The notes: a model not told the origin generated them from the letters alone. 64,000 nt of DNA from Candidatus Aminicenantia bacterium (GCA_041479905.1 JBGOYY010000007.1:5162-69161); one strand, 5' to 3'; shown: positions 16,562 to 33,098, counted from the stretch's first letter. Numbers and translations are program-made.

Positions 16562-17794
16562 ATGGCAAAAGACGACATTATGACCCTTACAGGAGAAAAG
16601 GACGCTTGTCCGTCGGATAAATTCTCACGCCGGAAGTTCTTCGCCTCCGCGGCCATGGTCGCGGCCGGGGCGGCCCTGGCCCCGCGCCTGATCCCCCAGG
16701 AAAAGGTCCAGGAGGAGAAGCCCACGCCTCCCCCGCCGGCGGAGATCAAGACCAATATCGACGAGGTCCGCAAGATCCCCAGGGTCGAGGGCTCGCTTCC
16801 CGGGAAATACCCCGGGAAGGTGGTCAGGGTCAAGACCGGGGCCAATCCCGTCGGGCAGAAGATCGACGGGGCCCGGGTGCGGAAGGAAATGAGCGCCGGC
16901 ATGGCCGAGCTCACCGGGGAAAAGAACCTGGGCAAGGCCTGGGGGAAGTTCGTCGGGCCGAAGGACGTCGTCGGCATCAAGGTCAACCCCATCGGGGAGG
17001 CCATCCTCTCGACCAAGCCCGAGGTCGTGGACGCCATTATCGAGGGGCTCCTCGCCGCGGGCGTCCTGAAGGCGAACATCGTCATCTGGGACAGGCGGCT
17101 CTTCGAGCTCGAGGCGGCCGGGTTCACGGCCGCACGCTTCCCCGGGGTCCGCATCCTGGGCACGGAGTTGAAAGGCCCCAACGGGGAATTCTACGACGAC
17201 AAGGGCGAGCTCTGGGCCAAGGACAACATCGACCGCGAGGCCCTGCCCTACGTCGCCGACGTCGAGCAGAAGTACGACAAGGAGACCCTGGGCTACATGA
17301 TCAACGAGGGCAAGAGCTCCTATTTCACGAAGATCGTCACGGGGACGGTGACCAAGATCGTCAACGTCCCCATCCTCAAGAACGCCGGGGCGACCGCCAC
17401 CTGCTGTCTCAAGAACCTGTCCTACGGCTCGCTCAGCAACACCGGGCGCCTGCATAAGCTCTGGATGAAGTCGGTGGCCGAGCCGTGCGCCTTCCCGGTC
17501 CTGCGGGACAAGGTCGTCCTCAACATCGTCGACGGGCTCCAGGCCTGCTACGACGGCGGCCCCGGGGCTAACCCCAAGTTCATCTACGACGCGTCGGTCC
17601 TCCTCTTCGGGACGGACCCGGTGGCCGTGGACGCCGTGGCCCATGACATCATCGTCAAGGAGCGGATGGCCCGGGGGACCCAGCAGGTCGACGCCCGCGC
17701 CAAGAGCGCCGCCTTCCTGGACATCGCCGAGGGACTGGGGCTGGGTGTGGCGGCGTGGGAGAAGATCAAGATTTCGGACGTGAAGCTGGGGTGA
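16562..17794 (+). CDS. Tat-signal DUF362-like protein
   Basis: AGGAGG RBS before the ATG at 16562. Twin-arginine signal SRRKFFASAAMVAAGAALAP. VGIKVNP and LKNLSYGS blocks resemble DUF362. The family call is from memory only. Confidence 0.55.
   Translation: MAKDDIMTLTGEKDACPSDKFSRRKFFASAAMVAAGAALAPRLIPQEKVQEEKPTPPPPAEIKTNIDEVRKIPRVEGSLPGKYPGKVVRVKTGANPVGQKIDGARVRKEMSAGMAELTGEKNLGKAWGKFVGPKDVVGIKVNPIGEAILSTKPEVVDAIIEGLLAAGVLKANIVIWDRRLFELEAAGFTAARFPGVRILGTELKGPNGEFYDDKGELWAKDNIDREALPYVADVEQKYDKETLGYMINEGKSSYFTKIVTGTVTKIVNVPILKNAGATATCCLKNLSYGSLSNTGRLHKLWMKSVAEPCAFPVLRDKVVLNIVDGLQACYDGGPGANPKFIYDASVLLFGTDPVAVDAVAHDIIVKERMARGTQQVDARAKSAAFLDIAEGLGLGVAAWEKIKISDVKLG
17711..17748. repeat. 38-nt direct repeat, copy 1 (inside the 3' end of the DUF362-like gene)
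   Basis: GCCTTCCTGGACATCGCCGAGGGACTGGGGCTGGGTGT. It recurs at 19039-19076 with one mismatch. Confidence 0.85.
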
Positions 17795-18948: not shown

Positions 18949-19038
18949 TCGTCATGCCTCGGGTCTTATTGCAGGTTGGCTGACGGATCTGCTTGTTATT
19001 CATAAGTTCAGCAACTATTCGGCATGTTGAAGCCAAGC

Positions 19039-19076
19039 GCCTTCCTGGACATCGCCGAGGGGCTGGGGCTGGGTGT
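19039..19076. repeat. 38-nt direct repeat, copy 2 (intergenic, upstream of kinase 1)
   Basis: GCCTTCCTGGACATCGCCGAGGGGCTGGGGCTGGGTGT. The preceding GCCAAG...CG also matches copy 1 if a 5-nt gap is allowed. Confidence 0.85.
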
Positions 19077-19108
19077 CACAGCGCAGGGCTTTCGCCCCCT
19101 CCGGCCGG

Positions 19109-19168: not shown

Positions 19169-21961
19169 ATGAAGTGCCCGAAATGCCAGTCTGAGAACCC
19201 TCCGGAGTCCACATACTGCGGCAAGTGCGCCACGCGAATCCGGGGACACGTACCGGCTCCCGGAAAATCCGGTACATGTCCCCAGGATTCGCCCCGACCC
19301 GCCGTCACCGAAACCATGGGGACAACACGCGAAGAACTGACGACCGGCTCCACGTTCGCCGGCCGTTACCAGGTCATCGAGGAGCTCGGCCAGGGCGGCA
19401 TGGGCAAGGTCTACAAAGTCCACGACACCAAGATCGGCGAGAAGATCGCCCTCAAGCTCATCCGGCCCGAAGCCGGCCTGGATAAGAGCTCGCTCGAGCG
19501 GTTCTCGAACGAGCTCAAGCTGGCCCGAAAGATCCGTCACAAGAACGTCTGCCAGATGTTCGACCTGGGAGAGGACCAGGGCGTCCGCTACATCACCATG
19601 GAGTATGTCCACGGCGAGGACCTCAAGCAGCTCATCCGCAAGGTCGGGCGGCTGAGCCCCGGCCAAGCCATCGCGATAGCCCGGCAGGTCTGCGACGGCC
19701 TCGAGGAAGCCCACAAGCTGAGCGTCGTCCATCGCGACCTCAAGCCCCAGAACATCATGCTCGACGACGACGGCAACGCCCGGATCATGGACTTCGGGAT
19801 CGCGCGGTCGCTCACCGGGAAGAGCATCACGGGGGCCGGGGTGCTCATCGGGACGCCCGAGTACATGAGCCCGGAGCAGGTGGAGGGGAAGGACGTCGAT
19901 CAAAGGTCGGACATCTATTCGCTGGGGGTCATCCTCTATGAGATGGTCGCGGGACGGCGGCCCTTCGACGGCGAGACGGCGCTCAGCATCGCCCATAAGC
20001 AAAAATACGAGGCGCCCGAGGACCCGAGGAAGATCAATCCCCAAATCCCTGAGGATCTCTCCCGGATCATCCTCAAATGCCTGGAGAAGGACAAGGCGGC
20101 GCGCTACGAGAGCGCCCGCGCTCTTGACGCGGACCTGGCCGGGATCGAGGAAGGCCTGCCGACGACGGAGAAAATCATCCCGAAAAGAAAAGGCCTCGCG
20201 ACACGGGACATTACGGTCAAGTTCAATGTCAGGAAAATATTGATCCCGGCGATCCTCGTCACAACGGCCATCGCCGCCGCGGTCTTTTTCCTCCTGATCC
20301 GTAAGCCCGGCCCCGCCCTGAACCCGAAGCTCGCCCTGGTCAGCATCTTCGTCAACCAGACGGGCGATGCGACCCTGGACCCTTTGGGCAAGGTGGCCGC
20401 CTACGAGATCGCCCAAGGCCTGTCTCAATCGGGGATCATGGACGTCGTCCCGAGCATGTCGGTCCTGGAGACCTCCCGAGTCATCAATGCCGAGTCCGGA
20501 GTCCCCAAGGATCAGGACGAGCTCCGCGCCCTGGCCAAGAGCACGGGAGCCGGAACGCTCGTTTCCGGAGATTATTATTTGATCGACCACGAGCTCCAAT
20601 TCCACGCCACGATCACCGATGCCGTCCATCGCAAGCTCATACAGTCTCTCGAGCCACTTAAGGGGAGCCTCGACGACAAGATGGGGCTGATCACGGAATT
20701 GAGCAAGAGGCTCATGGGGGCCCTGGCTATGCATTTCACGAATGTGACCATGAGCGAAATGGCCCAGAAGGCCCGCCGGCCTCCGGTTTATGAAGCCTAT
20801 CTGGAATTCCTCCAGGGATTTGATCTTTGGGGTGTGGATTACGAACAGTCGGTCCGCCATTTCACCCGGGCCGTCGAGTTAGACCCCTCGTTTTTCGTAG
20901 CGAAGTTTTATATTGTTAGCGCCACCTCTGGAAATCCAGATCAATACGAGAAAGCGGACGCTTTACTCCAATCTCTTATTCAAAATCGGGACGAACTCTC
21001 TCCGCTCGAAAATAGCCTTATCGACTATCATATTGCAGCGCTCAAAGGTCGAAATGACGAGGCTCTCCGGTTTATCCGGGAAGCCGAGAAATTGGCGCCG
21101 AACAACATGGTCATCAACCGCATCGCCGGGGCCTGCGCATTGGGCATCAATCATCCTCGAGAAACGGTCGAAACCTACGCCAAGTTGGATTTCATGGACC
21201 CGAAAGTCCTCTACGGATATGCCGCAGGCGCCTGGACCCTCGGCTTCCGGGCCGAGGCCCATCATATGCTCGGAAGCTATAAAAAAGAGCTGGAGGTTAT
21301 AAAGACGGGGGAGAAATACTATCCTAGGTTGCTGTCTTTCCGGCGCTATGAAGCCCGCGCTCTGGCCGCTCTCGGAAGAACGAATGAGGTCAGGAAAGTC
21401 ATTGAAGAATGCTTGGGAGTGGAGTCGACCGGTGGAACTCAGGGCGACGTCATGATGGAAGCGGCCAGGGAGCTCTATGCCCATGGGCATAGGGATGCTT
21501 CTCGGGAGATCGCCGCCAAGGCCATCGAATGGGCCGAGAGCCGGCCCGAAGCCGAGAGAAAAACGGAAGCGGGTCAGGGGTTCTTCGCTAACGCCCTTTA
21601 TTTTGCCGGGCGCTGGGATGAGGCCGGAGGGATATACGGTTCCCTGGCCGCCGGACATCCGGAGGATATCGACTATCAAGGATACTTGGGGACATTGGCC
21701 GCCCGGCGGGGGGACCGCGAAGGGGCGATGAAGATCTCCAATGAATTGGCCACGATCGACAGGCGTTTTCTTTTCGGCAGTCATACCTATTGGCGTGCCT
21801 GCATCGCCTCGCTCCTCGGCGAAAAAGAGCGGGCCGTCGCGCTTCTCAGGGAGTCTTTCAGCCAGGGCAGGGGCTACCGCGTCGGCCTCCACCGCGACAT
21901 CAACCTCGAACCCCTGTGGGATTACCAGCCGTTCAAAGAACTCCTTCGGCCGAAGGGCTGA
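19169..21961 (+). CDS. Ser/Thr protein kinase: N-terminal zinc ribbon, kinase, TM, periplasmic domain, TPR region (paralog 1)
   Basis: MKCPKCQSENPPESTYCGKCA zinc ribbon. Hanks motifs GQGGMGKVYK, HRDLKPQN, DFGIA, GTPEYMSPE. TM helix ILIPAILVTTAIAAAVFFLLI. Start moved to the ATG at 19169 with GAAGGGGA upstream. Confidence 0.9.
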   Translation: MKCPKCQSENPPESTYCGKCATRIRGHVPAPGKSGTCPQDSPRPAVTETMGTTREELTTGSTFAGRYQVIEELGQGGMGKVYKVHDTKIGEKIALKLIRPEAGLDKSSLERFSNELKLARKIRHKNVCQMFDLGEDQGVRYITMEYVHGEDLKQLIRKVGRLSPGQAIAIARQVCDGLEEAHKLSVVHRDLKPQNIMLDDDGNARIMDFGIARSLTGKSITGAGVLIGTPEYMSPEQVEGKDVDQRSDIYSLGVILYEMVAGRRPFDGETALSIAHKQKYEAPEDPRKINPQIPEDLSRIILKCLEKDKAARYESARALDADLAGIEEGLPTTEKIIPKRKGLATRDITVKFNVRKILIPAILVTTAIAAAVFFLLIRKPGPALNPKLALVSIFVNQTGDATLDPLGKVAAYEIAQGLSQSGIMDVVPSMSVLETSRVINAESGVPKDQDELRALAKSTGAGTLVSGDYYLIDHELQFHATITDAVHRKLIQSLEPLKGSLDDKMGLITELSKRLMGALAMHFTNVTMSEMAQKARRPPVYEAYLEFLQGFDLWGVDYEQSVRHFTRAVELDPSFFVAKFYIVSATSGNPDQYEKADALLQSLIQNRDELSPLENSLIDYHIAALKGRNDEALRFIREAEKLAPNNMVINRIAGACALGINHPRETVETYAKLDFMDPKVLYGYAAGAWTLGFRAEAHHMLGSYKKELEVIKTGEKYYPRLLSFRRYEARALAALGRTNEVRKVIEECLGVESTGGTQGDVMMEAARELYAHGHRDASREIAAKAIEWAESRPEAERKTEAGQGFFANALYFAGRWDEAGGIYGSLAAGHPEDIDYQGYLGTLAARRGDREGAMKISNELATIDRRFLFGSHTYWRACIASLLGEKERAVALLRESFSQGRGYRVGLHRDINLEPLWDYQPFKELLRPKG

Positions 21962-22574: not shown

Positions 22575-22831
22575 GCAGAAACGGCCGGCCGGACCCGCGA
22601 TCCATCGCGCCGCCTGCATAGCACAGTAGGTCGCCAGAGGACCAGAGCGCCTTCCGGAAATCACCGATGGGCTAAGGCCGAGTGAGCAAATTCACTCTCT
22701 CCCATCGTCTATCTCATTAGGCAAACCGCCAAGGGATACAAAAAATCATGGGCGTGTCATTCGGACTGCCGGGTGTGCCGGGCTTGACTCACCGTACGCA
22801 ATATGGTACGTTTCAATCAGAGGTCACCGCG

Positions 22832-23074
22832 ATGACGACACTGACAGCGAGCCAAGCCCGGGCCCACCTATTTAAGCTCCTTGACCAGGCGGCTTCTTCG
22901 CACGAGCCCATCCAGATCACCGGAAAGAGGGCCAACGCCGTCCTCGTCTCCGAAGAAGATTGGCGAGCCATCCAGGAAACGCTCTATCTGCTCTCCATCC
23001 CGGGGATGCGCGAGTCTATTCGCAAGGGGATGAAAGAGCCCGTCGAGAAATGCGGCGGCAGACTCAAGTGGTGA
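22832..23074 (+). CDS. yefM: type II antitoxin, Phd/YefM family
   Basis: MTTLTASQARAHLFKLLDQAASSHEPIQITGKRANAVLVSEEDWRAIQETLYLLS is a typical YefM N-domain. Overlaps the toxin start. Confidence 0.85.
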   Translation: MTTLTASQARAHLFKLLDQAASSHEPIQITGKRANAVLVSEEDWRAIQETLYLLSIPGMRESIRKGMKEPVEKCGGRLKW

Positions 23075-23334
23075 GCTGGCGGCTCGTTTACACGCGCCAA
23101 GCGCAACGGGACGCCAAAAAGTTGGCCGCTTCGGGTCTGCGCCCGAAAGCCGAAACCTTACTCGAAATCCTGGCCAGGAATCCTTTCGAGGACCCTCCCA
23201 CCTTTGAAAAGCTGCTGGGAGACCTTTCAGGCGCCTATTCCCGGCGTATCAATATCCACCATCGACTCGTCTATCAAGTGCTTTCCGAAATCAAAACGGT
23301 CAAGATCCTGCGTATGTGGACTCATTACGAGTGA
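23068..23334 (+). CDS. yoeB: type II toxin, Txe/YoeB family
   Basis: GTG start overlapping the antitoxin stop. SWRLVYTRQAQRDAKKL, GDLSGAYSRRINIHHRLVYQV, ILRMWTHYE. Confidence 0.85.
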   Translation: MVSWRLVYTRQAQRDAKKLAASGLRPKAETLLEILARNPFEDPPTFEKLLGDLSGAYSRRINIHHRLVYQVLSEIKTVKILRMWTHYE

Positions 23335-23338
23335 CGGG

Positions 23339-26167
23339 CTATTTTTTCTCCGGGTAGAGCGTGACCTGGACGTAGCGTTTCGTGTTGAAGTAGGTCCGGG
23401 CCGCCTCTTTGACCGCGTTCGTCGTCAGAAGCTTGAGCGATTCCGCAAAGCGCGGTATCGCGGCGGGGTCGTCCCCGATCCGATAGCGCTCGGTGAGCTG
23501 GGCCAGCCACCAATCGTTCTGCCGGCTGTTCGTCTCGAAGTCGCGGGACTCGGCCAGCCGGACCTCATCGACCTCTTTTTCGGTCGGCCCCTTTTTCTTC
23601 AGATTCTTGATCTCCCGGAAAATGGCCCGGGTCATATCGTCCATGCGCGCGGGGTCGGCGCCGAGGTCGATCGTCACCCGGTATTCCTCGCGGGGGATCT
23701 TGCTGTAGGACGGCTGGACGGCGACGTCGTAGGTCCCGCTCAACTTCTCGCGGAGGAGCTTCCGCAGACGGGTTTCGAGCACCTGTCCGGCCGCGCGAAT
23801 GGCGATGCGGTGTCCGGGGTCGCTCTTGAACGGTCCGGAGAAGACGATGGCCGTCAGACTCTTGGGCTCGACCCCTTTCTCGACCGTCCTTTTCACCACG
23901 CCCTCGGGCGGAGGGACCCTCCAGTCCCGCCAGGTCTCCTTGCGGCCCCGAGAAGGCAGGGAGGCCAGGTAGCGGCAGACCAGGGGCTTGATCTTCTCCA
24001 GGTCCAGGTTGCCGACGAAGACGAAGGTGAAGTCGCCCGCGTCGGCGAACCGGTCCCTGTAGAAAGCCAGGGATTTCTCGAGGCTCATCCGCGGGATCTC
24101 CTCGACCGTCATGGGCCGGAACCTCGGCTGGTCCCTCTGCATGGTCTTGCGCAGAGTGTCCGAGAAGACAGTTTCCGGGCTCTGGTCGCGGTTCTCCAGG
24201 AAGGTCTTCAGCTGGCTCTTGAGGACGTCGAAAACGACGGGGTCGGGGCGCGGCGCGGTGAAGGTCAAATAGATCAGCTGGAAGAGGGTCTCGGCGTCCC
24301 TGGGAGAGGCGTTCCCCGAAAGCCCCTCCTCGAGCTCGCCGATCATCGGCCTGATGAAGACGGCTTTGCCGGCCAGCTTTTTCTGGAGGTTGATGGCGCT
24401 GAATTCACCCAGGCCGCCCGAGGCCACGACCTGGTCGGCGGTGTTGGCCGGGATGAGGTTTTCGTCCTCGGCGAGCGAGACGCCGCCCGCGCTCGTGGCC
24501 CGGAGGAGGATCTCGTCCTCCTTGAAATCCGTCGGCTTGAGGACGACGCGCGCGCCGTTGGAGAGCGTCCATTCCGTGATCCCGGCCTCGGCGATCGTCC
24601 GGCTCGACACGACCTTTCCGGGCTCCGGCATTCCGGGAAGGAGCGGCGCGTCGGTCGTGGTGTCCTTGTAGGGGGCGATCTCTTCCCGCTTGACCTCTTC
24701 GAGGACGGCCAGGAGCTCTTTTTCGCTGGGGACGCCGGCGCCCTCTTTTTCCGGGGCGTTGGCCATGATGACGCGGTTTCTCTCGGTCATCCACTCTTTG
24801 GCCAGCCGGTTCGTTTCGTCGAGGGTGATCCCGGGCAGGAATTGGACGTGCAGGTCGTATTCATACTGGATGCCGGGCGTCGCCTCTCCCTGTAGAAAGC
24901 TCCGGCTGAACTCCTGGGCGTACGTGCCGGAATCCTCCGTCTCCTTCTCCGCCAGGGCGTTTTCGAAAACGCGCATCATTTCGCTCTTCTGCCGTTCGAG
25001 CTCCGTCGCGGTGAAGCCGAAGCGGGCTACCCGCTCCCCTTCGGTGTACAGGGCCCGGAGCCCCCTGGCGATGCCTCCCGCCTCGACGAGCGCCGACAGG
25101 ACGTAGACCTCTTTCGACCCGATGAAGCGCCCCTGGCTCGAGACGGCTCCCAGGAACGGCGCGCCGGGTTTCTGCGTGATCTCGAGGAGACGCTCATTGA
25201 GCATGCTGTTGAAAAGCCGTTCGACGAGCATCTGACGGTAGGAGCCGACCGTGCTCTGGTCCCTGAGGGGCAGTTTGTGGTAGACGGCCACGACGCTCTC
25301 GGAGGTTTCCTTGTCCGTGGCGATGGCGAACAGCGTCTCGTCGTGGTCGGGGACGGGATAGGACGGCCGCGGCGGCGCGCCCGGCGGAACGGGGATCGAG
25401 GCGAAATGCTTCCTGACGAGCTCCTCGATGCGGGCCCGGTCGAAGTCGCCCACGGCGACGACGGCCATCAGGTCCGGACGGTACCAGGTTCGGTAGTACC
25501 GCTTCAGAGTTTCGTACTTGAAACTTTCGATGACCTCTTTTTTCCCGACGGGCATGCGCTCGGCGTAGCGCGAGCCCCGGAAAAGGACCGGGAATTGCCT
25601 GTCGCGCATCCTCGCGTCCGCGCCCTGACCCAAGCGCCACTCCTCGACGATGATCCCCCGCTCCTTGTCGATCGCCTTGGGGTCGAAGGTCAGACCGTGG
25701 GCCCAATCCTCGAGGATCAGGAAGGAGGTCTCGAGGATTTCAGGGGAATCCGTGGGGACCTTCAGCATGTAGATCGTTTCGTCGAAACCGGTGAAGGCGT
25801 TGAGGTCGGGCCCGAAGCGCATGCCGATCGATTCCATGAAATCGACGAGCTTCTGCTTGGGGAAATGCGTGGACCCGTTGAAGGCCATGTGCTCGACCAC
25901 GTGGGCCAGGCCCAGCTGGTCCTCGTCCTCAAGGACCGAGCCGGCGTTGACGACCAGGCGCAGCTCGGCCCGGTTCTCCGGCTTCCGGTTTTCGCGAATG
26001 TAATAACGGAGGCCGTTCCCGAGCTCGCCGACCGTGATCTTGGGGTCGACGGGGATCTTTTGGTCGAGGGGATACTTGTCGGCCTGGGCGACGAGCGGGG
26101 CGACGACAAGGAAGGCCGAAAGGGCGATGAGAAGGATTCTGCGCTGGTGTTTCATCCCTTCTATCAT
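23339..26167 (-). CDS. M16-family (pitrilysin/insulinase-like) zinc peptidase, double-length, secreted
   Basis: Signal peptide. Inverted zinc motif HxxEH (HVVEHMAFNGS). 942 aa is consistent with four M16 half-domains. Confidence 0.85.
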   Translation of the reverse strand: MIEGMKHQRRILLIALSAFLVVAPLVAQADKYPLDQKIPVDPKITVGELGNGLRYYIRENRKPENRAELRLVVNAGSVLEDEDQLGLAHVVEHMAFNGSTHFPKQKLVDFMESIGMRFGPDLNAFTGFDETIYMLKVPTDSPEILETSFLILEDWAHGLTFDPKAIDKERGIIVEEWRLGQGADARMRDRQFPVLFRGSRYAERMPVGKKEVIESFKYETLKRYYRTWYRPDLMAVVAVGDFDRARIEELVRKHFASIPVPPGAPPRPSYPVPDHDETLFAIATDKETSESVVAVYHKLPLRDQSTVGSYRQMLVERLFNSMLNERLLEITQKPGAPFLGAVSSQGRFIGSKEVYVLSALVEAGGIARGLRALYTEGERVARFGFTATELERQKSEMMRVFENALAEKETEDSGTYAQEFSRSFLQGEATPGIQYEYDLHVQFLPGITLDETNRLAKEWMTERNRVIMANAPEKEGAGVPSEKELLAVLEEVKREEIAPYKDTTTDAPLLPGMPEPGKVVSSRTIAEAGITEWTLSNGARVVLKPTDFKEDEILLRATSAGGVSLAEDENLIPANTADQVVASGGLGEFSAINLQKKLAGKAVFIRPMIGELEEGLSGNASPRDAETLFQLIYLTFTAPRPDPVVFDVLKSQLKTFLENRDQSPETVFSDTLRKTMQRDQPRFRPMTVEEIPRMSLEKSLAFYRDRFADAGDFTFVFVGNLDLEKIKPLVCRYLASLPSRGRKETWRDWRVPPPEGVVKRTVEKGVEPKSLTAIVFSGPFKSDPGHRIAIRAAGQVLETRLRKLLREKLSGTYDVAVQPSYSKIPREEYRVTIDLGADPARMDDMTRAIFREIKNLKKKGPTEKEVDEVRLAESRDFETNSRQNDWWLAQLTERYRIGDDPAAIPRFAESLKLLTTNAVKEAARTYFNTKRYVQVTLYPEKK

Positions 26168-26229
26168 AGACGATTCGGGAAATTATAACATATGCTCTCG
26201 AGCGCCGCTCTTCATGGCTCTTCGTGACC

Positions 26230-26277
26230 ATTGACACCGCCATGCGGCCGGCCATAAACTTCCGGCATGGATAGGCA
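26230..26277 (+). promoter_or_regulatory. 48-nt promoter/operator-like element, copy A
   Basis: ATTGACACCGCCATGCGGCCGGCCATAAACTTCCGGCATGGATAGGCA. TTGACA at 26231-26236, 18-nt spacer, TAAACT at 26255-26260. The gene's ATG (26267) sits 6 nt after the -10 box, with no SD. Confidence 0.55.
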
Positions 26278-26968
26278 TCGTCCAAGCGTCCTGAACGGCA
26301 TCCTCGCACGGTTTGGACAAATGGCGATTCTCATCATCATTCAAGCGGCTATCCTTTTCCTCGCCGCAGGCCGTCTCGACTGGGCATGGGCTTGGGTTTT
26401 CTTGGGAATCTATTTTGTGAGCGTATTGGTCAACAGTGTGTTTATGATCCGCTCCCATCCCGAGACCCTCGCCGAGCGTGGCCACGCTCAGAAAACCAAG
26501 GATTGGGATAAGCTCGTGGGAGGTCTCTGGAGCCTAGCTCAATTCTTGATCCTTCCCGTCGTCGCTGGCTTGGATTTGCGGTTCGGCTGGACTCGAGACA
26601 TCAGCACATGGTGGCATGTTGTTGGTGCCATAATTTTTGCACTTGGACTCGCTCTTTTCGGGTGGGCGATCATTACCAACGCATACTTCTCGACCGCAGT
26701 ACGCATTCAGAGTGACCAGGGGCAGACAGTGTGTCGTTCGGGACCGTATCGCTATATAAGACATCCTGGCTATGCCGGGACGACGCTCCAGTCAATGGCG
26801 ATAGTTTTTTTGCTCGGATCTTGGTGGTCGTTGATCCCCGCGGTTGTAGCGTCTGGCCTCATGATTCTTAGAACCCACCTCGAGGATCGCACGTTGCAGG
26901 CCGAGTTACCGGGCTATCAAGCTTTCATGCAAGAAGTCCGATATCGCCTCATCCCAGGTATCTGGTAA
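26267..26968 (+). CDS. ICMT/PEMT-like membrane methyltransferase family protein
   Basis: Multi-TM protein with GPYRYIRHPGYAG, a family-typical RHPxY block. G+C looks lower than its neighbours. Confidence 0.7.
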   Translation: MDRHRPSVLNGILARFGQMAILIIIQAAILFLAAGRLDWAWAWVFLGIYFVSVLVNSVFMIRSHPETLAERGHAQKTKDWDKLVGGLWSLAQFLILPVVAGLDLRFGWTRDISTWWHVVGAIIFALGLALFGWAIITNAYFSTAVRIQSDQGQTVCRSGPYRYIRHPGYAGTTLQSMAIVFLLGSWWSLIPAVVASGLMILRTHLEDRTLQAELPGYQAFMQEVRYRLIPGIW

Positions 26969-27061
26969 GACGCATCTCATTTCTGCCCAACACCGGCTGC
27001 ATCTGACCGCCTTCGGCGTGGGTCCGGAGTGCGAAATCCGCGGGCATCGATTTTCGCGGTA

Positions 27062-27109
27062 ATTGACATGGCCGCGCGGCCGGTGATATGGTGTCGGCAT
27101 GGTTAGGAG
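27062..27109 (+). promoter_or_regulatory. 48-nt promoter/operator-like element, copy B
   Basis: ATTGACATGGCCGCGCGGCCGGTGATATGGTGTCGGCATGGTTAGGAG. TTGACA at 27063-27068, perfect palindrome GCCGCGCGGC in the spacer, TATGGT at 27087-27092, conserved ATG at 27099. Confidence 0.55.
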
Positions 27110-27163
27110 GGGGGGGTCAGGTCGCTCGGAAAAAGCAAATTATTTATTTTCTAGAGCACTCCT

Positions 27164-28705
27164 ATGGATAAAGACGTGAACGCGTTGAAGGCGACACCGC
27201 TATCGATTGACTGCGGTCTGACGGTCCAGGTTCTCCTGGACGCACTACCCTTCTTCGCCATGCTGGTGGACGCGGAGCACACCATATTGCAGGCAAACGC
27301 TGTGGTCGCGAAAAATTTCGGGGTGGCCCAGGCATCCCTGGCCGGCAAGTACTGCCCCGACGCGATCCATGGGTTGGACCATCCCTTCCCGGGATGTCCC
27401 TTGGAGGAAGCTCGCGGTTCCGGTTGTTCCAATGAAAGCGTGTTGTTTGATGCGGAACACGGCACATGGTTGAAATCCTCCGTGTACTCCACCACGACGT
27501 CCACGCCCGAGGGGCATCGCATTTTCGTCCACCTGGCGGAGGATGTGACCGAAATGCATGCGGTCAAGGAGGAGTTGGTACGAAACGCCAACATCCAGAC
27601 CGCTCTTAATGACCTGCTGCGCTTGTCCGGTACCAACGCACCCATAGATGACCTCCTGCAGCAGGTGTTGGAGCGCATCATCACGCTGCCGTGGCTGGCG
27701 GTGGAGCGAAAGGGAGCCATCTTCCTGGCCGATGAGAAATCCGGGACGCTGTCCATGCGCGCCCAAACATCCCTCCATCAGGCTCTGCTGACCGCGTGTC
27801 GCGAAGTACCCTTCGGATGGTGCATGTGCGGGCGGGCGGCGGCCACACGCACGATACAGTTTGCGGACTCCTTGGATGAACGCCATGACGTCCGATACGA
27901 TGGGATCAAACCACACGGTCATTATTGCGTACCGTTGTTAAAGGGCGACCACGTGTTGGGCGTCCTGAACGTCTACTTAGTGCCGGGGCACGTGTGTGAC
28001 GCGCATGAGGAGACGTTCCTCCGCGCAGCGGCAGAAGTCCTGGTGGGATTGATCGAGAAGCAGCGGGCGCTTGATACCTTGGTCGAGACCCTGGCACGGG
28101 TGCGAAAGATCCTGGGCGGCATCATTGACCTGATGGCGTCCGTTGTGGAATCCAGAGATCCCTACACCGCGGGCCACCAGCGCCGCGTATCGGACTTGGC
28201 GCGGTCCATCGCAACCGAGATGGGGTTGGCGAGTGACGTCGTGGAGGGGATCCGCACGGCCGGGCTGATCCATGATCTGGGCAAGATCGCGATCCCGGCG
28301 GAAATCCTCAGCAAACCAGGGCGCCTGACCGCATTGGAATACCAGATGATCCAGACCCATGTGAGCGTGGCGTATGAACTCCTGAAGCCCATCCAGTTTC
28401 CGTGGCCCATCGCCAATGCCGTGGCCCAGCACCATGAACGCCTGGACGGCTCCGGGTACCCGGCTCGCTTGGCGGGCGACGCAATCGGGGTGCATGGACG
28501 GGTCCTGGCCGTGGCGGACGTGGTGGAGTCCATGGCGTCCCATCGCCCGTACCGCCCGGCGCTGGGCATGGATCGCGCGTTGGAAGAAATCCAGCGCGGA
28601 CGCGGAACTCAATACGACCCGAACGCGGTGGACGCGTGCTTGCGGTTGTTCCGGGAGAAAGCTTACAGTCTGAGAGGGTCCATTAACGAGCCGAGCGTCG
28701 TGTAA
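27164..28705 (+). CDS. PAS-GAF-HD-GYP domain protein (putative c-di-GMP phosphodiesterase)
   Basis: HD-GYP signature (HDLGKIAIP ... HHERLDGSGYP). GAF-like block (GAIFLADEKSGTLSMRAQ ... HYCVPLLKGDHVLGVLNVY). PAS-like N-terminus. Confidence 0.85.
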   Translation: MDKDVNALKATPLSIDCGLTVQVLLDALPFFAMLVDAEHTILQANAVVAKNFGVAQASLAGKYCPDAIHGLDHPFPGCPLEEARGSGCSNESVLFDAEHGTWLKSSVYSTTTSTPEGHRIFVHLAEDVTEMHAVKEELVRNANIQTALNDLLRLSGTNAPIDDLLQQVLERIITLPWLAVERKGAIFLADEKSGTLSMRAQTSLHQALLTACREVPFGWCMCGRAAATRTIQFADSLDERHDVRYDGIKPHGHYCVPLLKGDHVLGVLNVYLVPGHVCDAHEETFLRAAAEVLVGLIEKQRALDTLVETLARVRKILGGIIDLMASVVESRDPYTAGHQRRVSDLARSIATEMGLASDVVEGIRTAGLIHDLGKIAIPAEILSKPGRLTALEYQMIQTHVSVAYELLKPIQFPWPIANAVAQHHERLDGSGYPARLAGDAIGVHGRVLAVADVVESMASHRPYRPALGMDRALEEIQRGRGTQYDPNAVDACLRLFREKAYSLRGSINEPSVV

Positions 28706-28788
28706 GATCTTGGTTAAGATGACCTTCGGGGCGTCTGGGACGTCCACTCCGGTTGATATTTTCTCACCCTGATTCACCCTTAGAGGTG

Positions 28789-28836
28789 ATTGACATAGCC
28801 GCGCGGCTGAACATACACTTCCAGCATGGAAAGGCA
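28789..28836 (+). promoter_or_regulatory. 48-nt promoter/operator-like element, copy C
   Basis: ATTGACATAGCCGCGCGGCTGAACATACACTTCCAGCATGGAAAGGCA. TTGACA at 28790-28795, palindrome GCCGCGCGGC, TACACT at 28814-28819, conserved ATG at 28826. Confidence 0.55.
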
Positions 28837-28884
28837 GGGAGATCCATCGTCCGGAAGGGCTTGACCGGAAAGAGGAGTCGAGCA

Positions 28885-30135
28885 ATGACATCATCTTGTT
28901 TCAAGAGAACCCTCCGGCGGACGGTGGCGGGATTGGCGATCCTGGCGGCGTTCCCCGCCCCGTTTTTCGCCCAGCAACCGCAGGCCATGTGCCGCGCCAG
29001 CCTCGAAACATACGTCTTAGACACGAGCCTGAATGCCCATTGGGAGGGCAACACCGTGGTCATGAAGAGCGGCGGCGTCGAGTACGTCTGCCGATGCGTG
29101 TCGGAGACCCAGCCGCCCGAGTGCAAGCCCAGAAATTCTTCCGGCACGAGCGGGTTGAGCGGCGTCGATATCAGCCGATTCAAGCCGGGACAACAGCTGG
29201 CCCTGATGGCGACACAGTCCCTGCTCCAGGGACTCTTCAATAACATTTTTGGCGCGGGCAAGCCTGCCGGCGCGGCCGGAGACGCTCTCGCGCAGCAGCA
29301 GGCCATGCTCAGAGAGCAGGAAGAAGCGAGAGAGCAGGCCCTCAATGACTGGAACATTTTTCAGATACAGGAAAAGAAGAGGCTGCAGGCGGAGCAGGAC
29401 GAAGCCAAGACGATCGGGCAGGCGCTTTTCGACAAGATGGGCGGGACGGGCGGACAAGGATTGGGTTACCAGTCCATAGCCGGGGGAAAGCTCGAATTCA
29501 ACGAATGGGTGGCGCGGAAGCCGGAGGCCAGCCCCCTGCCGTCGGGCAAGTACCCCGCGCCGAAGACGGCCTTCGAGCAGGCGCGATGCGCCGCGTACTT
29601 CTCCGACAAGGCCCTCGAGCTTTCCAAGCTGGGGAAGAACGAGGAAGCCCAATTCATGAATCTCCAGTCCCAGAAGGCCATGACCGGAGAGACTCTCGAT
29701 GTTCCCTGCCAGGCCGCGGCAACCGTGGCGGGAGCGGATCCGGGCACTGACCCGCAAAAGGCCGGTTCCCAGGCCATGGCCATGGGGATCAACGAAATTC
29801 TCAACCAATATAACGCCAAGATCAAGGAGCTCCTCGAGATCTCCCAGAAGCTGGGTGAGGTCAGGAAACAAAAACTCGCGGCGGAATTCGACGTCCGGGA
29901 GATGGATGCCAGGATCATGGATATCAAGAGCCGGGCCGCGGCGGCTATCCAGCCGGAAGAAAAGCAGAAATGCGACGACCTGCTCAACGAGGCCCTGGCC
30001 TTGCGGGGTCAATCGGAGAACCTCCTGAAGGTCGCCGGGGAGAATGAAGACGCCTGCCTGACGAGCGCTCGGCTGGCGGAAAGCCAGGTGCAGGAGCTGA
30101 GTTCCAAGCTTCAGGAAGGCAAGGACAAGAAGTGA
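28885..30135 (+). CDS. secreted protein: Cys-containing N-domain plus long Gln/Glu-rich coiled coil
   Basis: AGAGGAG RBS before the ATG at 28885. Signal peptide (TVAGLAILAAFPAPFFAQ). Heptad-like Q/E/K/A-rich sequence. The track start at 28753 runs through the promoter element. Confidence 0.6.
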   Translation: MTSSCFKRTLRRTVAGLAILAAFPAPFFAQQPQAMCRASLETYVLDTSLNAHWEGNTVVMKSGGVEYVCRCVSETQPPECKPRNSSGTSGLSGVDISRFKPGQQLALMATQSLLQGLFNNIFGAGKPAGAAGDALAQQQAMLREQEEAREQALNDWNIFQIQEKKRLQAEQDEAKTIGQALFDKMGGTGGQGLGYQSIAGGKLEFNEWVARKPEASPLPSGKYPAPKTAFEQARCAAYFSDKALELSKLGKNEEAQFMNLQSQKAMTGETLDVPCQAAATVAGADPGTDPQKAGSQAMAMGINEILNQYNAKIKELLEISQKLGEVRKQKLAAEFDVREMDARIMDIKSRAAAAIQPEEKQKCDDLLNEALALRGQSENLLKVAGENEDACLTSARLAESQVQELSSKLQEGKDKK

Positions 30136-30155
30136 GCTACAGGGAGAAGAAAAGC

Positions 30156-32042
30156 ATGGCCAGATCGAGGTTGTTAGTGGCGGTCGTTCTGTTGGGCGTT
30201 ATTTGGGCGAGCACGGACCTGGCGGCGCAGTGGAAACAACAGGCAAAAGGACTTGCCGTGATCAAAAGCGGCGATTATGAACAAGCTATCGCCATCTTTA
30301 AGGAATTGGCCCTCAACGGGAAGGCCAAGGAACAATTCTATAATTATTATCAATTGGGGAATTCCTATTACCTGAATGGACAGTATCCTGAAGCCATTGC
30401 CGCTATCAATGAGTCCTTGAAGCACACGGCGACGGCGCCTAGCGGAATCGTTAATTCGATGTTGCACAGGTGCTACGACTGGCTCGGGGCTGCTTACTAC
30501 CAAAACGGGTCCTACCCGGAAGCCGTAACCTCATACAAAAAAGCGATAGAACTCGACCCGAAGAATGGGCAATATTACTCATGGCTGGGCCGGTCTCTTA
30601 TTCATGTCAAACAATATGGCGATGCGCTGGCCGCCGCCAAGAGAGGGAACGAGCTCCAGCCGGGCTTTTACGCCGACATGGTGCTGGGCGAGCTCCACGC
30701 GGCGCGGAAGCAGTTCGACGAGGCCATCGCTGCCTACCGCAGGGCCATCGAGAACAACCCCAAGAGGCTGGACCTTCACTTGCAATTGGGTCAGGCGTTC
30801 TTGGCCAAAAATGATTACGATGGTGCCATCGGAGCGTACACAAAGGCGGCGGAATTGGCTCCGAACGACCCCGGCCTTCCCTATGGGCTCGGGGTTATCT
30901 ATTCCCGAGCGGGGAAATTCGACGAAGCGGTCGCGGCCCTCGACAAGGCCGTCGGCATGGTGACCTTCGTCGGCATCGGCATTGAAACTGGGATCGAAAA
31001 CGGTCAACTCGTCTTGAAGAGACTCATCGAGGGGCCCGCCAAAGAGGCCGGCCTCGAGGCCGGCGATAGGCTGGTCAAGATCGACGGCCAGTCGACGAAA
31101 GGCTGGGATCTCAAAAAGACCTCCCAGAGCTTGCGCGGCGAAGAAAACACGCAGGTCGTCTTGAGGATCCAAAGACAGGGAGAGGCCAAGCCGTTTGAAA
31201 AAACGATCACCAGAAAATTGATCATTCCGAAGGCCGCCGCCCTGTATTACGGATTTAGGAGCCTTTGTGCCAGGGAAAAAGGGAACCGCGAAGGCGCCGT
31301 CAAAGACGCCGGGCTGGCCTATTCGCTCGATCCCGATAATGTTGATGCCCGCGAAGCCCTGGCCGCCGTCAGCCTCGACGGAGGGAAATACGAAGAGGCG
31401 ATCAAGCTTCTCTCGCCCCTGAAAGATAATCCCTTCGCCCGCATCCTCGAAGCGACGGCCTTCGCCAAGCAGGGCGATGTCAAGCGGGCCGTCGAGATCT
31501 ACGCGGACATCCCCGAAGAGGAACTGCTGGCGGATCGCGTTATGAGGCAGAACGCCAGGAAGGCCCTCCTCCAGACGCTGGGAGGCTATGTTCAGGAGAG
31601 ACTGGACCAGGCCCGGGCCTCGGAGTCGGCCGGACGATTCCTGGAAGCGCTGGCCGAGTATGCCGAGGCGCTAAAGATCGCCGACGATACGACCGCCGGG
31701 CTCATCCGGCAGAGGGTCGCCATCACACTTAAGAGCAATCCCTACCTGACCGAACTGCCCGAGGAAGCCCGGAAGTACGCCCTGCGCGGCGACGTCCTCA
31801 TCAAGGAGGGCGGGTTCGCGGGCGCGCTCGCAGAATACCGGACGGCCCTCAAGATCGCGCCGTTCAACGCCCAGCTCCATTTCAACGAAGCCCTGATCCA
31901 CGGACAGCTCAAGGATTACCGGGAGGCCATCAAGTCCATGAACGTCTATCTCCAGCTGAATCCCGACGCTCCGAACGCCCGGGCGGCGAAAGACGAGATC
32001 TACAAATGGGAGTTTTCCTTGGAGAAAGAAGGGAAGAAGTAA
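30156..32042 (+). CDS. secreted TPR - PDZ - TPR protein
   Basis: Signal peptide (MARSRLLVAVVLLGVIWAS). Multiple TPR repeats (GNSYYLNGQYPEAIAAINESL and others). Central PDZ-like segment (GIGIETGIENGQLVLKRLIEGPAKEAGLEAGDRLVKIDGQS). An alternative GTG at 30132 overlaps the upstream stop (GTGA). Confidence 0.7.
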   Translation: MARSRLLVAVVLLGVIWASTDLAAQWKQQAKGLAVIKSGDYEQAIAIFKELALNGKAKEQFYNYYQLGNSYYLNGQYPEAIAAINESLKHTATAPSGIVNSMLHRCYDWLGAAYYQNGSYPEAVTSYKKAIELDPKNGQYYSWLGRSLIHVKQYGDALAAAKRGNELQPGFYADMVLGELHAARKQFDEAIAAYRRAIENNPKRLDLHLQLGQAFLAKNDYDGAIGAYTKAAELAPNDPGLPYGLGVIYSRAGKFDEAVAALDKAVGMVTFVGIGIETGIENGQLVLKRLIEGPAKEAGLEAGDRLVKIDGQSTKGWDLKKTSQSLRGEENTQVVLRIQRQGEAKPFEKTITRKLIIPKAAALYYGFRSLCAREKGNREGAVKDAGLAYSLDPDNVDAREALAAVSLDGGKYEEAIKLLSPLKDNPFARILEATAFAKQGDVKRAVEIYADIPEEELLADRVMRQNARKALLQTLGGYVQERLDQARASESAGRFLEALAEYAEALKIADDTTAGLIRQRVAITLKSNPYLTELPEEARKYALRGDVLIKEGGFAGALAEYRTALKIAPFNAQLHFNEALIHGQLKDYREAIKSMNVYLQLNPDAPNARAAKDEIYKWEFSLEKEGKK

Positions 32043-33098
32043 ATGAGCCTTCTTAAGCGTTCTTGTCTCGTCGGACTGGCGCTGGCGATCCTTTTTCCCG
32101 GCGGCTGGACCTCCGCCGCCCAGGAAGCGAGCCAAAACGACGGTTTCCTGCTCGGCGCTCTCTTCAAGACGCGGGACCTGATCGACAGGACGGCGGCGGA
32201 TCTCCAAAAGATCGACCGGGAGATCCAGGAGAACGACCGGGTCATCAAGAAGGCCGAGGAGATCATCGTCCTCGCCGGGCAAAGGAACAACAAACAGGCG
32301 GAGTCGGTCGCCCGGGACGCGCTGCTCAAAGCCCGGGAGGCCAGGAAGAAGAACGAGGATACCAAGGCCCGCTTGGAGCTGGTCAGAAAAAGGGCCGCGG
32401 CCTCCTATGGAGCCCTAAAGAACAGGCTCGCCGCGAGCCTGGGAGGCGGGGCGAACTCTCCGATCAAGGGGATGGTGTCGGCTTACTCCGGAAGAGTGCA
32501 AGTATCCAAGAAAAACGGCGAGCACTTCGAACTGCGAGACGATGACCCCGGATTGCTCGAGCCGGGCGATACGATATTGACCTATGGCTCGAGCAGCGCC
32601 GAGATCCAGACCCTCGATGGACGTGGAGCAGTCCAATTGGGCGAATATTCCGAGCTCCGACTCCAAGAGGACACTCCGGAGAAACAGGTCCTGGAGCTCG
32701 CGCGGGGGAAAATATATTCCGCTGTCGATAAGGCCGACGATTTCGCGAATATGCTCCAGGAAAAGGCGAAGCAGTTCGGCAGCGATTTTCTGACCGTCGC
32801 CAACGTCAGCGAGAAGGAATACGAGGCCGTCATCAAGGCTTTGAGAGCGCGAGCCCAGAAAAAATTCGAAGTCCGCACACCCTCTGCCGTCACGTCCGTG
32901 AGGGGAACGAGATTCAGCGTCGAGCTCAAGAACGGCGAAACAACGGAAATTGCCGTCTTTGAAGGGTCGGTCGAGGCCGGCGACTTGAAGGGCGAAAAGC
33001 GGGTCCTCGTTGAAGAAGGCTTCAAGGTTATCGTGACGAAGGACGGGATTTCAGGGCCGCAAAAAATCACCGACGTCGAAAAGTGGTGGGATAAATAG
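32043..33098 (+). CDS. FecR-domain protein with signal peptide and coiled-coil N-region
   Basis: The ATG immediately follows the upstream TAA. FecR-like block (GRVQVSKKNGEHFELRDDDPGLLEPGDTILTYGSSSAEIQTLDG ... TPSAVTSVRGTRFSVE). Confidence 0.65.
   Translation: MSLLKRSCLVGLALAILFPGGWTSAAQEASQNDGFLLGALFKTRDLIDRTAADLQKIDREIQENDRVIKKAEEIIVLAGQRNNKQAESVARDALLKAREARKKNEDTKARLELVRKRAAASYGALKNRLAASLGGGANSPIKGMVSAYSGRVQVSKKNGEHFELRDDDPGLLEPGDTILTYGSSSAEIQTLDGRGAVQLGEYSELRLQEDTPEKQVLELARGKIYSAVDKADDFANMLQEKAKQFGSDFLTVANVSEKEYEAVIKALRARAQKKFEVRTPSAVTSVRGTRFSVELKNGETTEIAVFEGSVEAGDLKGEKRVLVEEGFKVIVTKDGISGPQKITDVEKWWDK

Follow-up and report, generated by a model that had tools for sequence, protein, structure and literature searches.

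Probable right ends of an IS91/ISCR-type element as putative promoters of three adjacent transcription units in a Candidatus Aminicenantia bacterium

In this work we address the question of why three adjacent and unrelated transcription units in the genome of a Candidatus Aminicenantia bacterium are each preceded by nearly the same promoter-like sequence. The stretch of DNA analysed, hereafter the window, comprises 64,000 nucleotides (nt) of one contig (GCA_041479905.1 JBGOYY010000007.1:5162-69161), and the sequence in question is a 48-nt element that occurs ahead of a gene for an ICMT-like methyltransferase, a gene for a PAS-GAF-HD-GYP protein and an operon encoding a 416-amino-acid (aa) protein, a TPR-PDZ protein and a FecR-domain protein. 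A preliminary description of the window had ascribed the three copies to a local mini-regulon governed by a single regulator that recognizes a palindrome. Here we propose, with a probability that we place at roughly 0.8, that the copies are instead solo right ends of an insertion sequence (IS) of the IS91/ISCR type, which provide the three units with a near-consensus sigma-70 promoter.

Three copies of a longer, dispersed module

The three copies, termed A, B and C, begin at positions 26230, 27062 and 28789, all lie on the + strand and align without gaps over 48 nt, with pairwise identities of 38/48 (A-C), 34/48 (A-B) and 33/48 (B-C) and 30 invariant columns. Each combines a TTGACA -35 hexamer and an 18-nt spacer with a -10 hexamer reading TAAACT in A, TATGGT in B and TACACT in C, and a promoter scan of positions 25800-29200 returned these copies as the sole sigma-70-like sites, with 10/12 consensus matches apiece. 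Open reading frames (ORFs) that begin at the conserved ATG extend for 233 aa in copy A, 26 codons in copy B and 12 codons in copy C, and the sequence CATCGTCC, common to A and C, belongs to the consensus of the wider family described below. The preliminary description had reported the positions, the A-C and B-C identities, the hexamers, the ORFs, the sequence shared by A and C and the gene content (the ICMT-like and PAS-GAF-HD-GYP genes and a coiled-coil/TPR-PDZ/FecR operon), all of which held on recounting, in the promoter scan or in the Pfam results. It had overlooked that similarity continues beyond the 48 nt on both sides, for ~20-40 nt further upstream and, in copy B, downstream to about +110; the 48 nt are the core of a longer module of roughly 130-260 nt.

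Within the window the module is confined to these three sites. The pattern TTGACANNGCCNNGCGGC matches copies A, B and C alone at 0 mismatches, and up to 2 mismatches it finds 5 sites where 0.9 would be expected by chance; the pattern TTGACA-N17-ATA-N3-T-N2-C-N-GCATGG, allowing up to 3 mismatches, again matches only the three copies (0.04 expected). A repeat search groups them as one family with 3 members of 60 nt, and a sensitive profile search with filters switched off found no fourth copy in the 64 kb.

Beyond the window, the module proved to be a dispersed repeat. When a strict 20-base pattern was scanned over one genome per prokaryotic species, 13 stretches were returned, of which ~10 lie in Aminicenantes metagenome-assembled genomes (MAGs; 1-3 per MAG), while the others resemble chance matches. 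A second pattern, scanned over Joint Genome Institute (JGI) metagenomes, gave at least 120 loci and from them 125 non-identical copies, and an nhmmer profile built from those copies detected 197 copies in ~0.97 Mb of fetched Aminicenantes contigs, a sample picked for carrying the element and therefore not a measure of copies per genome. Exact patterns are evidently of low sensitivity, since 72 of the 197 profile copies escaped the scan pattern. Some contigs (cited here by handles such as L124) carry one copy per 2-3 kb, the densest being L124, with 6 copies in 12.6 kb and several pairs at 80-88% identity when assessed over 50 nt, as in the criterion used for mobile promoters (80% over 50 nt). 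The best 50-nt stretches of the window copies, compared with each other, reach 70-76% identity and fall under this criterion, and copy A compared with L070, L051 and L003 reaches 92-98% and lies above it.

The genes that follow these copies are diverse. The 117 downstream ORFs form 71 clusters, representing at least 70 unrelated gene families, and 45 representative downstream proteins matched 81 Pfam families, none of them more than 2 times, with functions that include peptidases, outer-membrane proteins, kinases, aminotransferases and nucleases, among others. No common functional theme emerged from this Pfam census of 45 representatives, and the downstream gene set is not a functionally coherent regulon.

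These findings bear directly on the mini-regulon of the preliminary description, according to which one regulator would act on the GC-rich spacer palindrome GCCGCGCGGC and leaderless short ORFs might add a layer of translational control; in such a model, selection on an operator would keep the copies alike. Such an arrangement would suit three adjacent units of which two encode signalling proteins, an 18-nt spacer that leaves room for a factor, and the conservation (0.9-0.95) of GCC-N4-GGC(C) within the spacer of the main subfamily. Against it, the similarity covers at least 130 nt, far past the size of an operator, and the copies precede a wide range of unrelated gene clusters rather than a locus-specific set. 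The preliminary description had itself named, as grounds for refuting the regulon, a motif common genome-wide at unrelated genes and hence just the consensus promoter; the motif does precede many unrelated genes, although the cause appears to be descent from a mobile element rather than a generic consensus promoter. Furthermore, a column check of GCCGCGCGGC and of the longer palindrome ATCGCCG..CGGCGAT gave no compensatory changes, the inner positions varying without compensation (GCCATGCGGC, GCCAACAGGC, GCCGAGCGGC, GCCGCTCAGC), and neither was retained as a candidate operator. In four of the six intact elements introduced in the next section (L144, L148 and both of those in L150) the spacer is AT-rich and the palindrome is absent, and in the other two it is non-palindromic as well, so that the GC-rich dyad is a feature of one subfamily.

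The start-site triplet is similarly variable, reading ATG, GTG, ATA and others (A/G-T-G/A across the family). In the close relatives L003 and L010, copy B has ATA in place of the ATG and the 26-codon ORF is absent, and in L007 this ORF has 6 codons, which led us to reject the layer of leaderless upstream ORFs. The A of the ATG does lie at the expected start and copies B and C are indeed kept at orthologous loci in relatives, but conservation extends to neither the palindrome nor the ATG nor the short ORFs, and we regard a regulon built around one palindrome-binding regulator as unlikely. The three units may well be co-expressed, solely through sharing one promoter type.

Linkage of the module to an IS91/ISCR-type transposase

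Evidence for the origin of the module comes from copies that retain more of their upstream sequence. In 23 of 157 copies the similarity extends further on the upstream side, crosses a conserved module (..GGGAGTCTATCGTCTTT..) and enters the 3' end of an ORF whose product ends ..CPKCGGxMKIIAFITEYAVVDRIIDHLKL..AAEESGEYF at its stop codon, and fragments of this ORF match Pfam Y2_Tnp together with the NCBIfam models for IS91-family and ISCR transposases. By tblastn, 46 of the 162 copies that could be assessed are preceded, on the same strand and at no more than 300 nt, by a transposase fragment, which is the natural C-terminus in 21 cases, an N-terminal piece fused to the promoter region in 17 and another piece in 8; because the N-terminal piece is fused directly to the promoter region, the 17 are internal-deletion derivatives. 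The remaining 116 copies (72%) are solo, with no transposase fragment nearby. Copy A of the window is 94% identical over 86 nt to the copy in L070, which has a transposase C-terminal fragment upstream. Full-length relatives of the transposase are numerous, with lengths of 422-423 aa and the domains Zn_Tnp_IS91 and Y2_Tnp; several are annotated at source as Aminicenantes transposases, and the protein matches the ISCR and IS91 models only distantly. The 13 contigs carrying transposase P0330 turned out to be a single locus from several samples and therefore gave no element ends.

The layout of the right end was examined for intact or near-intact transposase genes (323-423 aa) in L144, L145, L148, L149 and L150, the last of which contributes two. 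All six are followed by an outward-facing TTGAC(A/T)-N18-TAnnnT located 95-115 nt past the stop codon, in one case with a perfect TATAAT, and four of the six leaders open with (A/G)TGG.., as in the window copies. Similarity between the intact elements and other copies ends at a ..AAAAAnnAAAnnCTTAT.. terminus. Although the six right ends share low sequence similarity, their layout is unchanged and their divergence parallels that of their transposase genes, an argument for placing the promoter within the element rather than in a host target.

A second explanation was also weighed, namely that the module is a host promoter and leader favoured as an insertion target by IS91-type elements. IS91-family elements are target-specific (PMC13181058), 72% of the copies have no nearby transposase fragment, and the ends of the element were placed by similarity only. 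However, both the distance from stop codon to promoter and the sequence between them are conserved across copies with different downstream genes, diverged transposase genes carry a matching diverged promoter and terminus layout, and the internal-deletion derivatives join transposase N-terminal codons straight to the promoter, all of which make a host target quite improbable.

The two ends of the module, compared in inverted orientation, are 24% identical, which is the level of chance; they are unlike each other and carry no terminal inverted repeat (TIR). Similarity among copies ends after ..TAT(C/A)NTT, and the bases that follow vary (CAAA, ACCT, GAAC, GGAA and others), with GAAC present in few copies. 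The lack of TIRs and the many truncated copies fit the biology of the IS91 family (PMC13181058). A MITE (miniature inverted-repeat transposable element) was considered and rejected, the module having no TIR and no duplication at copy A, as was an integron attC-like cassette site, given that the module lies 5' of genes and has neither a long imperfect hairpin nor a core-site motif.

We therefore favour an origin from an IS91/ISCR-type right end, for which the following scenario may be envisaged. Copies A, B and C would be solo remnants of the right, oriIS-side end of a rolling-circle IS of the IS91/ISCR family that is abundant in Aminicenantes. Intact elements have ~230-260 nt between the transposase stop codon and the terminus, containing an outward TTGAC(A/T), an 18-nt spacer and TAnnnT, then a predicted purine start site 7 nt downstream of the -10 and a leader ending ..GAAAAAGCAAATTCTTATnTT. 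Many intergenic regions would have received, or retained as leftovers, complete elements, derivatives with internal deletions or right ends truncated on their 5' side, and whichever of these face a gene would have been kept as the promoter of that gene; in the window, this would apply to the genes for the methyltransferase and the HD-GYP protein and to the 416-aa/TPR-PDZ/FecR operon. We infer that the family spread through transposition, after which copies decayed and recombined with one another, with the family of the transposase being what suggests a rolling-circle mode.

Promoter character, local history and gene context

The family as a whole has the properties expected of a promoter. With respect to the next ORF, 110 copies are co-oriented and 19 are opposite (85% the same way). 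Conservation was measured on 43 copies that are independent of the scan pattern, among which the -35 TTGACA is conserved at 0.93-1.00 and the columns of the -10 at 0.98 (T), 1.00 (A), 0.84 (T), 0.93 (A), 0.47 (no preferred base) and 1.00 (T), compared with about 0.47-0.9 for most other columns of spacer and leader. Such a pattern across the hexamer is characteristic of sigma-70 -10 recognition, and the base 7 nt past the -10 is a purine (A 0.6, else G), as a start site would have. The proposal that the copies are promoters for three transcription units, one part of the preliminary description, is thereby supported, with a predicted sigma-70 type.

The history of the locus could be followed in relatives, the closest HD-GYP homologues (87-94% identity) being those of Aminicenantes MAGs. 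Copy B is kept upstream of the HD-GYP gene in L003, L007, L008, L010 and L022, and orthologues of copy C were found in L003, L007, L022, L099 and L100, of which L099 and L100 have different 5' arms; L002 represents the same strain as the window and gives no conservation information. In L003 a near-identical match to copy A precedes another gene, which encodes a histidine kinase. Between near-identical flanks, the window carries copy A where L007 carries 258 nt of unrelated sequence holding its own promoter-like site, a Shine-Dalgarno (SD) sequence and methyltransferase codons 1-11, and the two methyltransferases are 97% identical from residue 4 on. At the methyltransferase gene, copy A has taken the place of the native 5' end, and codons 1-4 (MDRH) now derive from the element. 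The 5' limit of the copy is the point at which similarity to L007 ends, after AAATTATAACA at 26180-26190, and its 3' joint with the ICMT coding sequence is a 7-nt microhomology (ATCGTCC, 26277-26283) common to the element leader and the methyltransferase gene. At copy A no target duplication was seen, the site being a replacement joined at microhomology and not a clean insertion; a search for filled-versus-empty pairs gave this replacement and a decayed copy in L008 alone, with no clean pair.

Since the methyltransferase gene no longer has a ribosome-binding site of its own or its original first 11 codons, and its frame opens at the ATG of the element at 26267, a leaderless start at this position, as previously proposed, is plausible; an internal start at 26321 is a possible alternative. 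Further candidates for leaderless starts are found in L082 (11078), L139 (1462) and L029 (radical SAM gene) and in L126 (3233) and L133 (membrane protein), in all of which similarity to the module ends 10-25 nt past the predicted start and a long ORF runs from the +1 ATG.

Relatives also differ at this locus by whole promoter-plus-gene units. In L010 two copies have been joined into a hybrid and the intervening genes are gone, in L008 a copy has lost its promoter core, and in L099 and L100 the M16 gene is followed immediately by a copy whose 5' arm is different. These differences probably arose by recombination between copies. Separately, in L008 a 133-aa Y2_Tnp (IS91-family) fragment at 4155-4556 is situated between the gene for the M16 peptidase and that for the HD-GYP protein and occupies the region of copy A and the ICMT gene in the window. 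In L007 the stretch immediately 5' of the ICMT gene (1300-1345; ..GACGTTGGCCCGTTCCTTGAG..) resembles that just 5' of the transposase start codon in intact elements (L011 2985-3030, L148 3950-4003), and the spacer between the M16 and ICMT genes may retain part of a left end from this family of IS.

These observations allow a third explanation to be considered, in which the copies would be debris of transposons, inert and without a role as promoters, and the hexamers would look conserved only because the copies are young. Many copies are indeed highly alike, 19 face convergent genes and the promoter role in the window is a prediction, but the hexamers are far more conserved than their neighbours within the same copies, following T-A-x-x-x-T, and 85% of copies share the orientation of the next gene. 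Furthermore, no other promoter-like site lies upstream of the window genes, the methyltransferase ORF is still intact after losing its upstream region to the element, and copy B has been retained before the HD-GYP gene in all of the 87-94% relatives. We consider inert debris very improbable.

Downstream of the predicted start, the leader consists of two tandem direct repeats of ~22 nt each (about GGGGAGATTCAnCGnCC and GCGGGAATTCnnCnCGCC), exactly one of which has been lost in copy B and in several others (leaders compared include L028, L036, L059 and L107). The loss in copy B leaves a run of 8 G at 27109-27116; this homopolymer, at the spot of the repeat missing relative to L007 and just past the predicted start, could slip in length. 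The leader repeats (27099-27150 and 28826-28875) might be protein-binding sites on DNA or RNA. Leader length is freely reduced, with 10 nt kept in copy A and ~12 in L040 and L038, and the AGGAGG of the leader serves as the SD of the next gene in some copies, while elsewhere the gene seems to open at the +1 ATG. Copy B retains the terminus of the element (..GGAAAAAGCAAATTATTTATTTT) 14 nt 5' of the HD-GYP start codon, and in copy C the A-rich end of the leader runs into the SD (AAGAGGAG) of the 416-aa gene. Around the HD-GYP start (27150-27166), a CUCCU that precedes it is complementary to the AGGAG close to the predicted transcript's 5' end, as is also the case in L007.

Searches for structure in the leader were negative: Rfam gave no family at E <= 10 for the window region and L003, RNAalifold gave 0 consensus pairs across 80 leaders, and the z-score of the minimum free energy had a mean of -0.44, with 6% of leaders below -2. 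Two hairpins noticed by eye, a 5'-terminal AUGGAU/AUCCAU and an outer CCGG..CCGG, are not kept across subfamilies, and for these reasons the idea of a structured RNA was dropped. A cis-regulatory leader RNA with the promoter merely carried along (a riboswitch or protein-binding 5' untranslated region, responding for example to c-di-GMP (cyclic di-GMP) in view of the HD-GYP protein) would suit the conservation to about +110, with UGG, AGG and GAUUCA strong and several GGA motifs, and the hairpin CCGGAGCG..CGyUCCGG that single copies can fold, but is scarcely credible for a leader that returned these null results, is made of freely shortened tandem repeats and precedes genes without a common function.

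Returning to the IS91/ISCR-type right end, several points weigh against this reading. Promoter activity and the start sites at 26267, 27099 and 28826 are predictions from sequence. For the 19 opposite copies the next ORF is convergent and presents its 3' end, so that not every copy can be a gene promoter, and in the main subfamily the spacer GCC..GGCC is almost as conserved as the hexamers, so that an additional bound factor may be involved; conceivably, a factor binds the conserved spacer or leader throughout the family. Because a tblastn search of the 64-kb window gave no transposase remnant (E > 0.2), the link of copies A, B and C to a transposase depends on their homology to copies elsewhere. 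The ends of the element are placed approximately, by where similarity stops, and by eye no GTTC/CTTG-type target tetranucleotide is evident beside the terminus. Many copies can form hairpins 20-45 nt from the terminus (CCGGAGCG..CGyUCCGG or GCGG..CCGC), the register of which moves between copies with no consensus pairing, and the subterminal palindromes of an oriIS were not consistently recoverable. If active, the convergent copies (e.g. L039 5032-5159, L104 7439-7578, L044 7532-7672 and 16 more) would give rise to antisense transcripts.

The features of the locus are collected in Table 1. A division into three separate transcription units is supported by the terminator-like hairpin ahead of copy C.

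Table 1. Module copies, predicted signals and neighbouring genes, in window coordinates.
Feature	Position	Strand	Remarks
M16 peptidase gene	upstream of copy A	-	
Copy A	26191..26283	+	probable solo, truncated right-end fragment of IS91/ISCR-type element
Copy A signals	-35 26231-26236; -10 26255-26260; start 26267	+	start predicted, coincides with ATG
ICMT/PEMT-family methyltransferase gene	26267..26968	+	Pfam PEMT and ICMT; copy A as putative promoter
Copy B	27041..27150	+	probable solo right end; nhmmer match 27043-27152, E 3e-22
Copy B signals	-35 27063-27068; -10 27087-27092; start 27099	+	TG before -10; start predicted
PAS-GAF-HD-GYP gene	27164..28705	+	Pfam HD_5, GAF_2 and PAS; no SD; copy B as putative promoter
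Terminator-like hairpin and T-run	28735..28761	+	between HD-GYP stop codon and copy C
Copy C	28762..28875	+	probable solo right end, shortened leader; nhmmer match 28762-28875
Copy C signals	-35 28790-28795; -10 28814-28819; start 28826	+	start predicted
416-aa protein gene	28885-30135	+	no Pfam match; first gene of copy C operon (28885..33098)
TPR-PDZ protein gene	30132-32042	+	copy C operon
FecR-domain protein gene	32043-33098	+	copy C operon

Elsewhere in the window, a PhdYeFM antitoxin and YoeB/ParE toxin pair (~22748-23334) lies just upstream of the M16 peptidase gene, and the pair also occurs in L008. A direct repeat of 300 nt with 75% identity, its copies 42 kb apart (19292-19591 and 61535-61834), and a 46-nt repeat with 91% identity, 1.3 kb apart (17710-17755 and 19038-19083), are both probably paralogous coding sequence.

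If our interpretation is correct, the shared promoter of three adjacent and unrelated units would be explained as inherited from one mobile-element family, and a speculative regulator would be replaced by a testable origin. The findings also flag a likely strong and portable promoter for Aminicenantes genes, suggest leaderless translation of some genes, and carry a warning for annotation, in that such repeats disrupt assemblies and give rise to spurious short ORFs. As a more doubtful extension, which we offer as a conjecture, the IS91-type elements of Aminicenantia might act as genome-wide distributors of a near-consensus promoter, with solo right ends running a sizeable share of operons, recombination between copies shuttling promoter-plus-gene units, as at the M16 peptidase locus, and the GC-rich spacer and the leader from +2 to +25 perhaps allowing one factor, or the transposase, to act on all of them.

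Comparison with known systems

Several described systems resemble the module in part. MerR-type promoters likewise have a GC-rich dyad between -35 and -10 and a spacer longer than optimal, but the spacer here is 18 rather than 19-20 nt, and the dyad shows no compensatory changes and is absent from related elements. Correia, ERIC and REPIN/MITE-type repeats are also small, dispersed intergenic sequences able to supply promoters; unlike the module, which has no TIR and no duplication at copy A, they have TIRs or hairpin doublets and, in some cases, target duplications.

A closer relationship is seen with IS91, IS801 and IS1294, with which the element shares a Y2 HUH transposase with an N-terminal zinc domain (Zn_Tnp_IS91 and Y2_Tnp), two ends that are unlike and without TIRs, a right end downstream of the transposase gene and the expectation of truncated and one-ended products. 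In the IS91 family the oriIS end differs from the terIS end, insertion leaves the target unduplicated, and one-ended transposition as well as circular intermediates occur (PMC13181058). In contrast to these three elements, the target tetranucleotide and subterminal palindromes that define oriIS were not clearly recovered here.

Putative mobile promoters have been described as homologous upstream sequences that stand before non-homologous genes, within or between genomes (Matus-Garcia, Nijveen, van Passel 2012; PMC3575422). In that survey the class was defined by sequence, its vehicle was mostly unknown and the means of movement was left open (PMC3575422), whereas in Aminicenantes the vehicle would be an IS91-type right end, providing a concrete candidate for how promoters propagate.

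The nearest described parallel is ISCR1, in which a 232-bp region on the oriIS side, downstream of the transposase gene, contains two outward promoters, shown by experiment to raise the expression of co-oriented genes beyond the element (Lallement et al. 2018, PMC6218425), collectively POUT and individually PCR1-1 and PCR1-2 (PMC6218425). Like ISCR1, the Aminicenantes element belongs to the IS91 superfamily of rolling-circle elements, has ~230 nt between stop codon and terminus that hold an outward sigma-70-type promoter, and is followed by co-oriented genes at a varying distance. It differs in having one near-consensus promoter (TTGACA-N18-TATAnT) in place of two weak ones, a transposase of 422-423 aa and a host in Aminicenantes rather than the gamma-proteobacteria, and its copies, known from sequence alone, are mostly solo or deleted, chromosomal and placed before ordinary genes rather than resistance genes. 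On the basis of these comparisons, the element would be filed as an IS-borne outward promoter, or mobile promoter, and not as a characterized IS91 oriIS, and would extend the outward-promoter principle of ISCR1 beyond resistance in the clinic to ordinary genes on the chromosomes of an uncultivated lineage.

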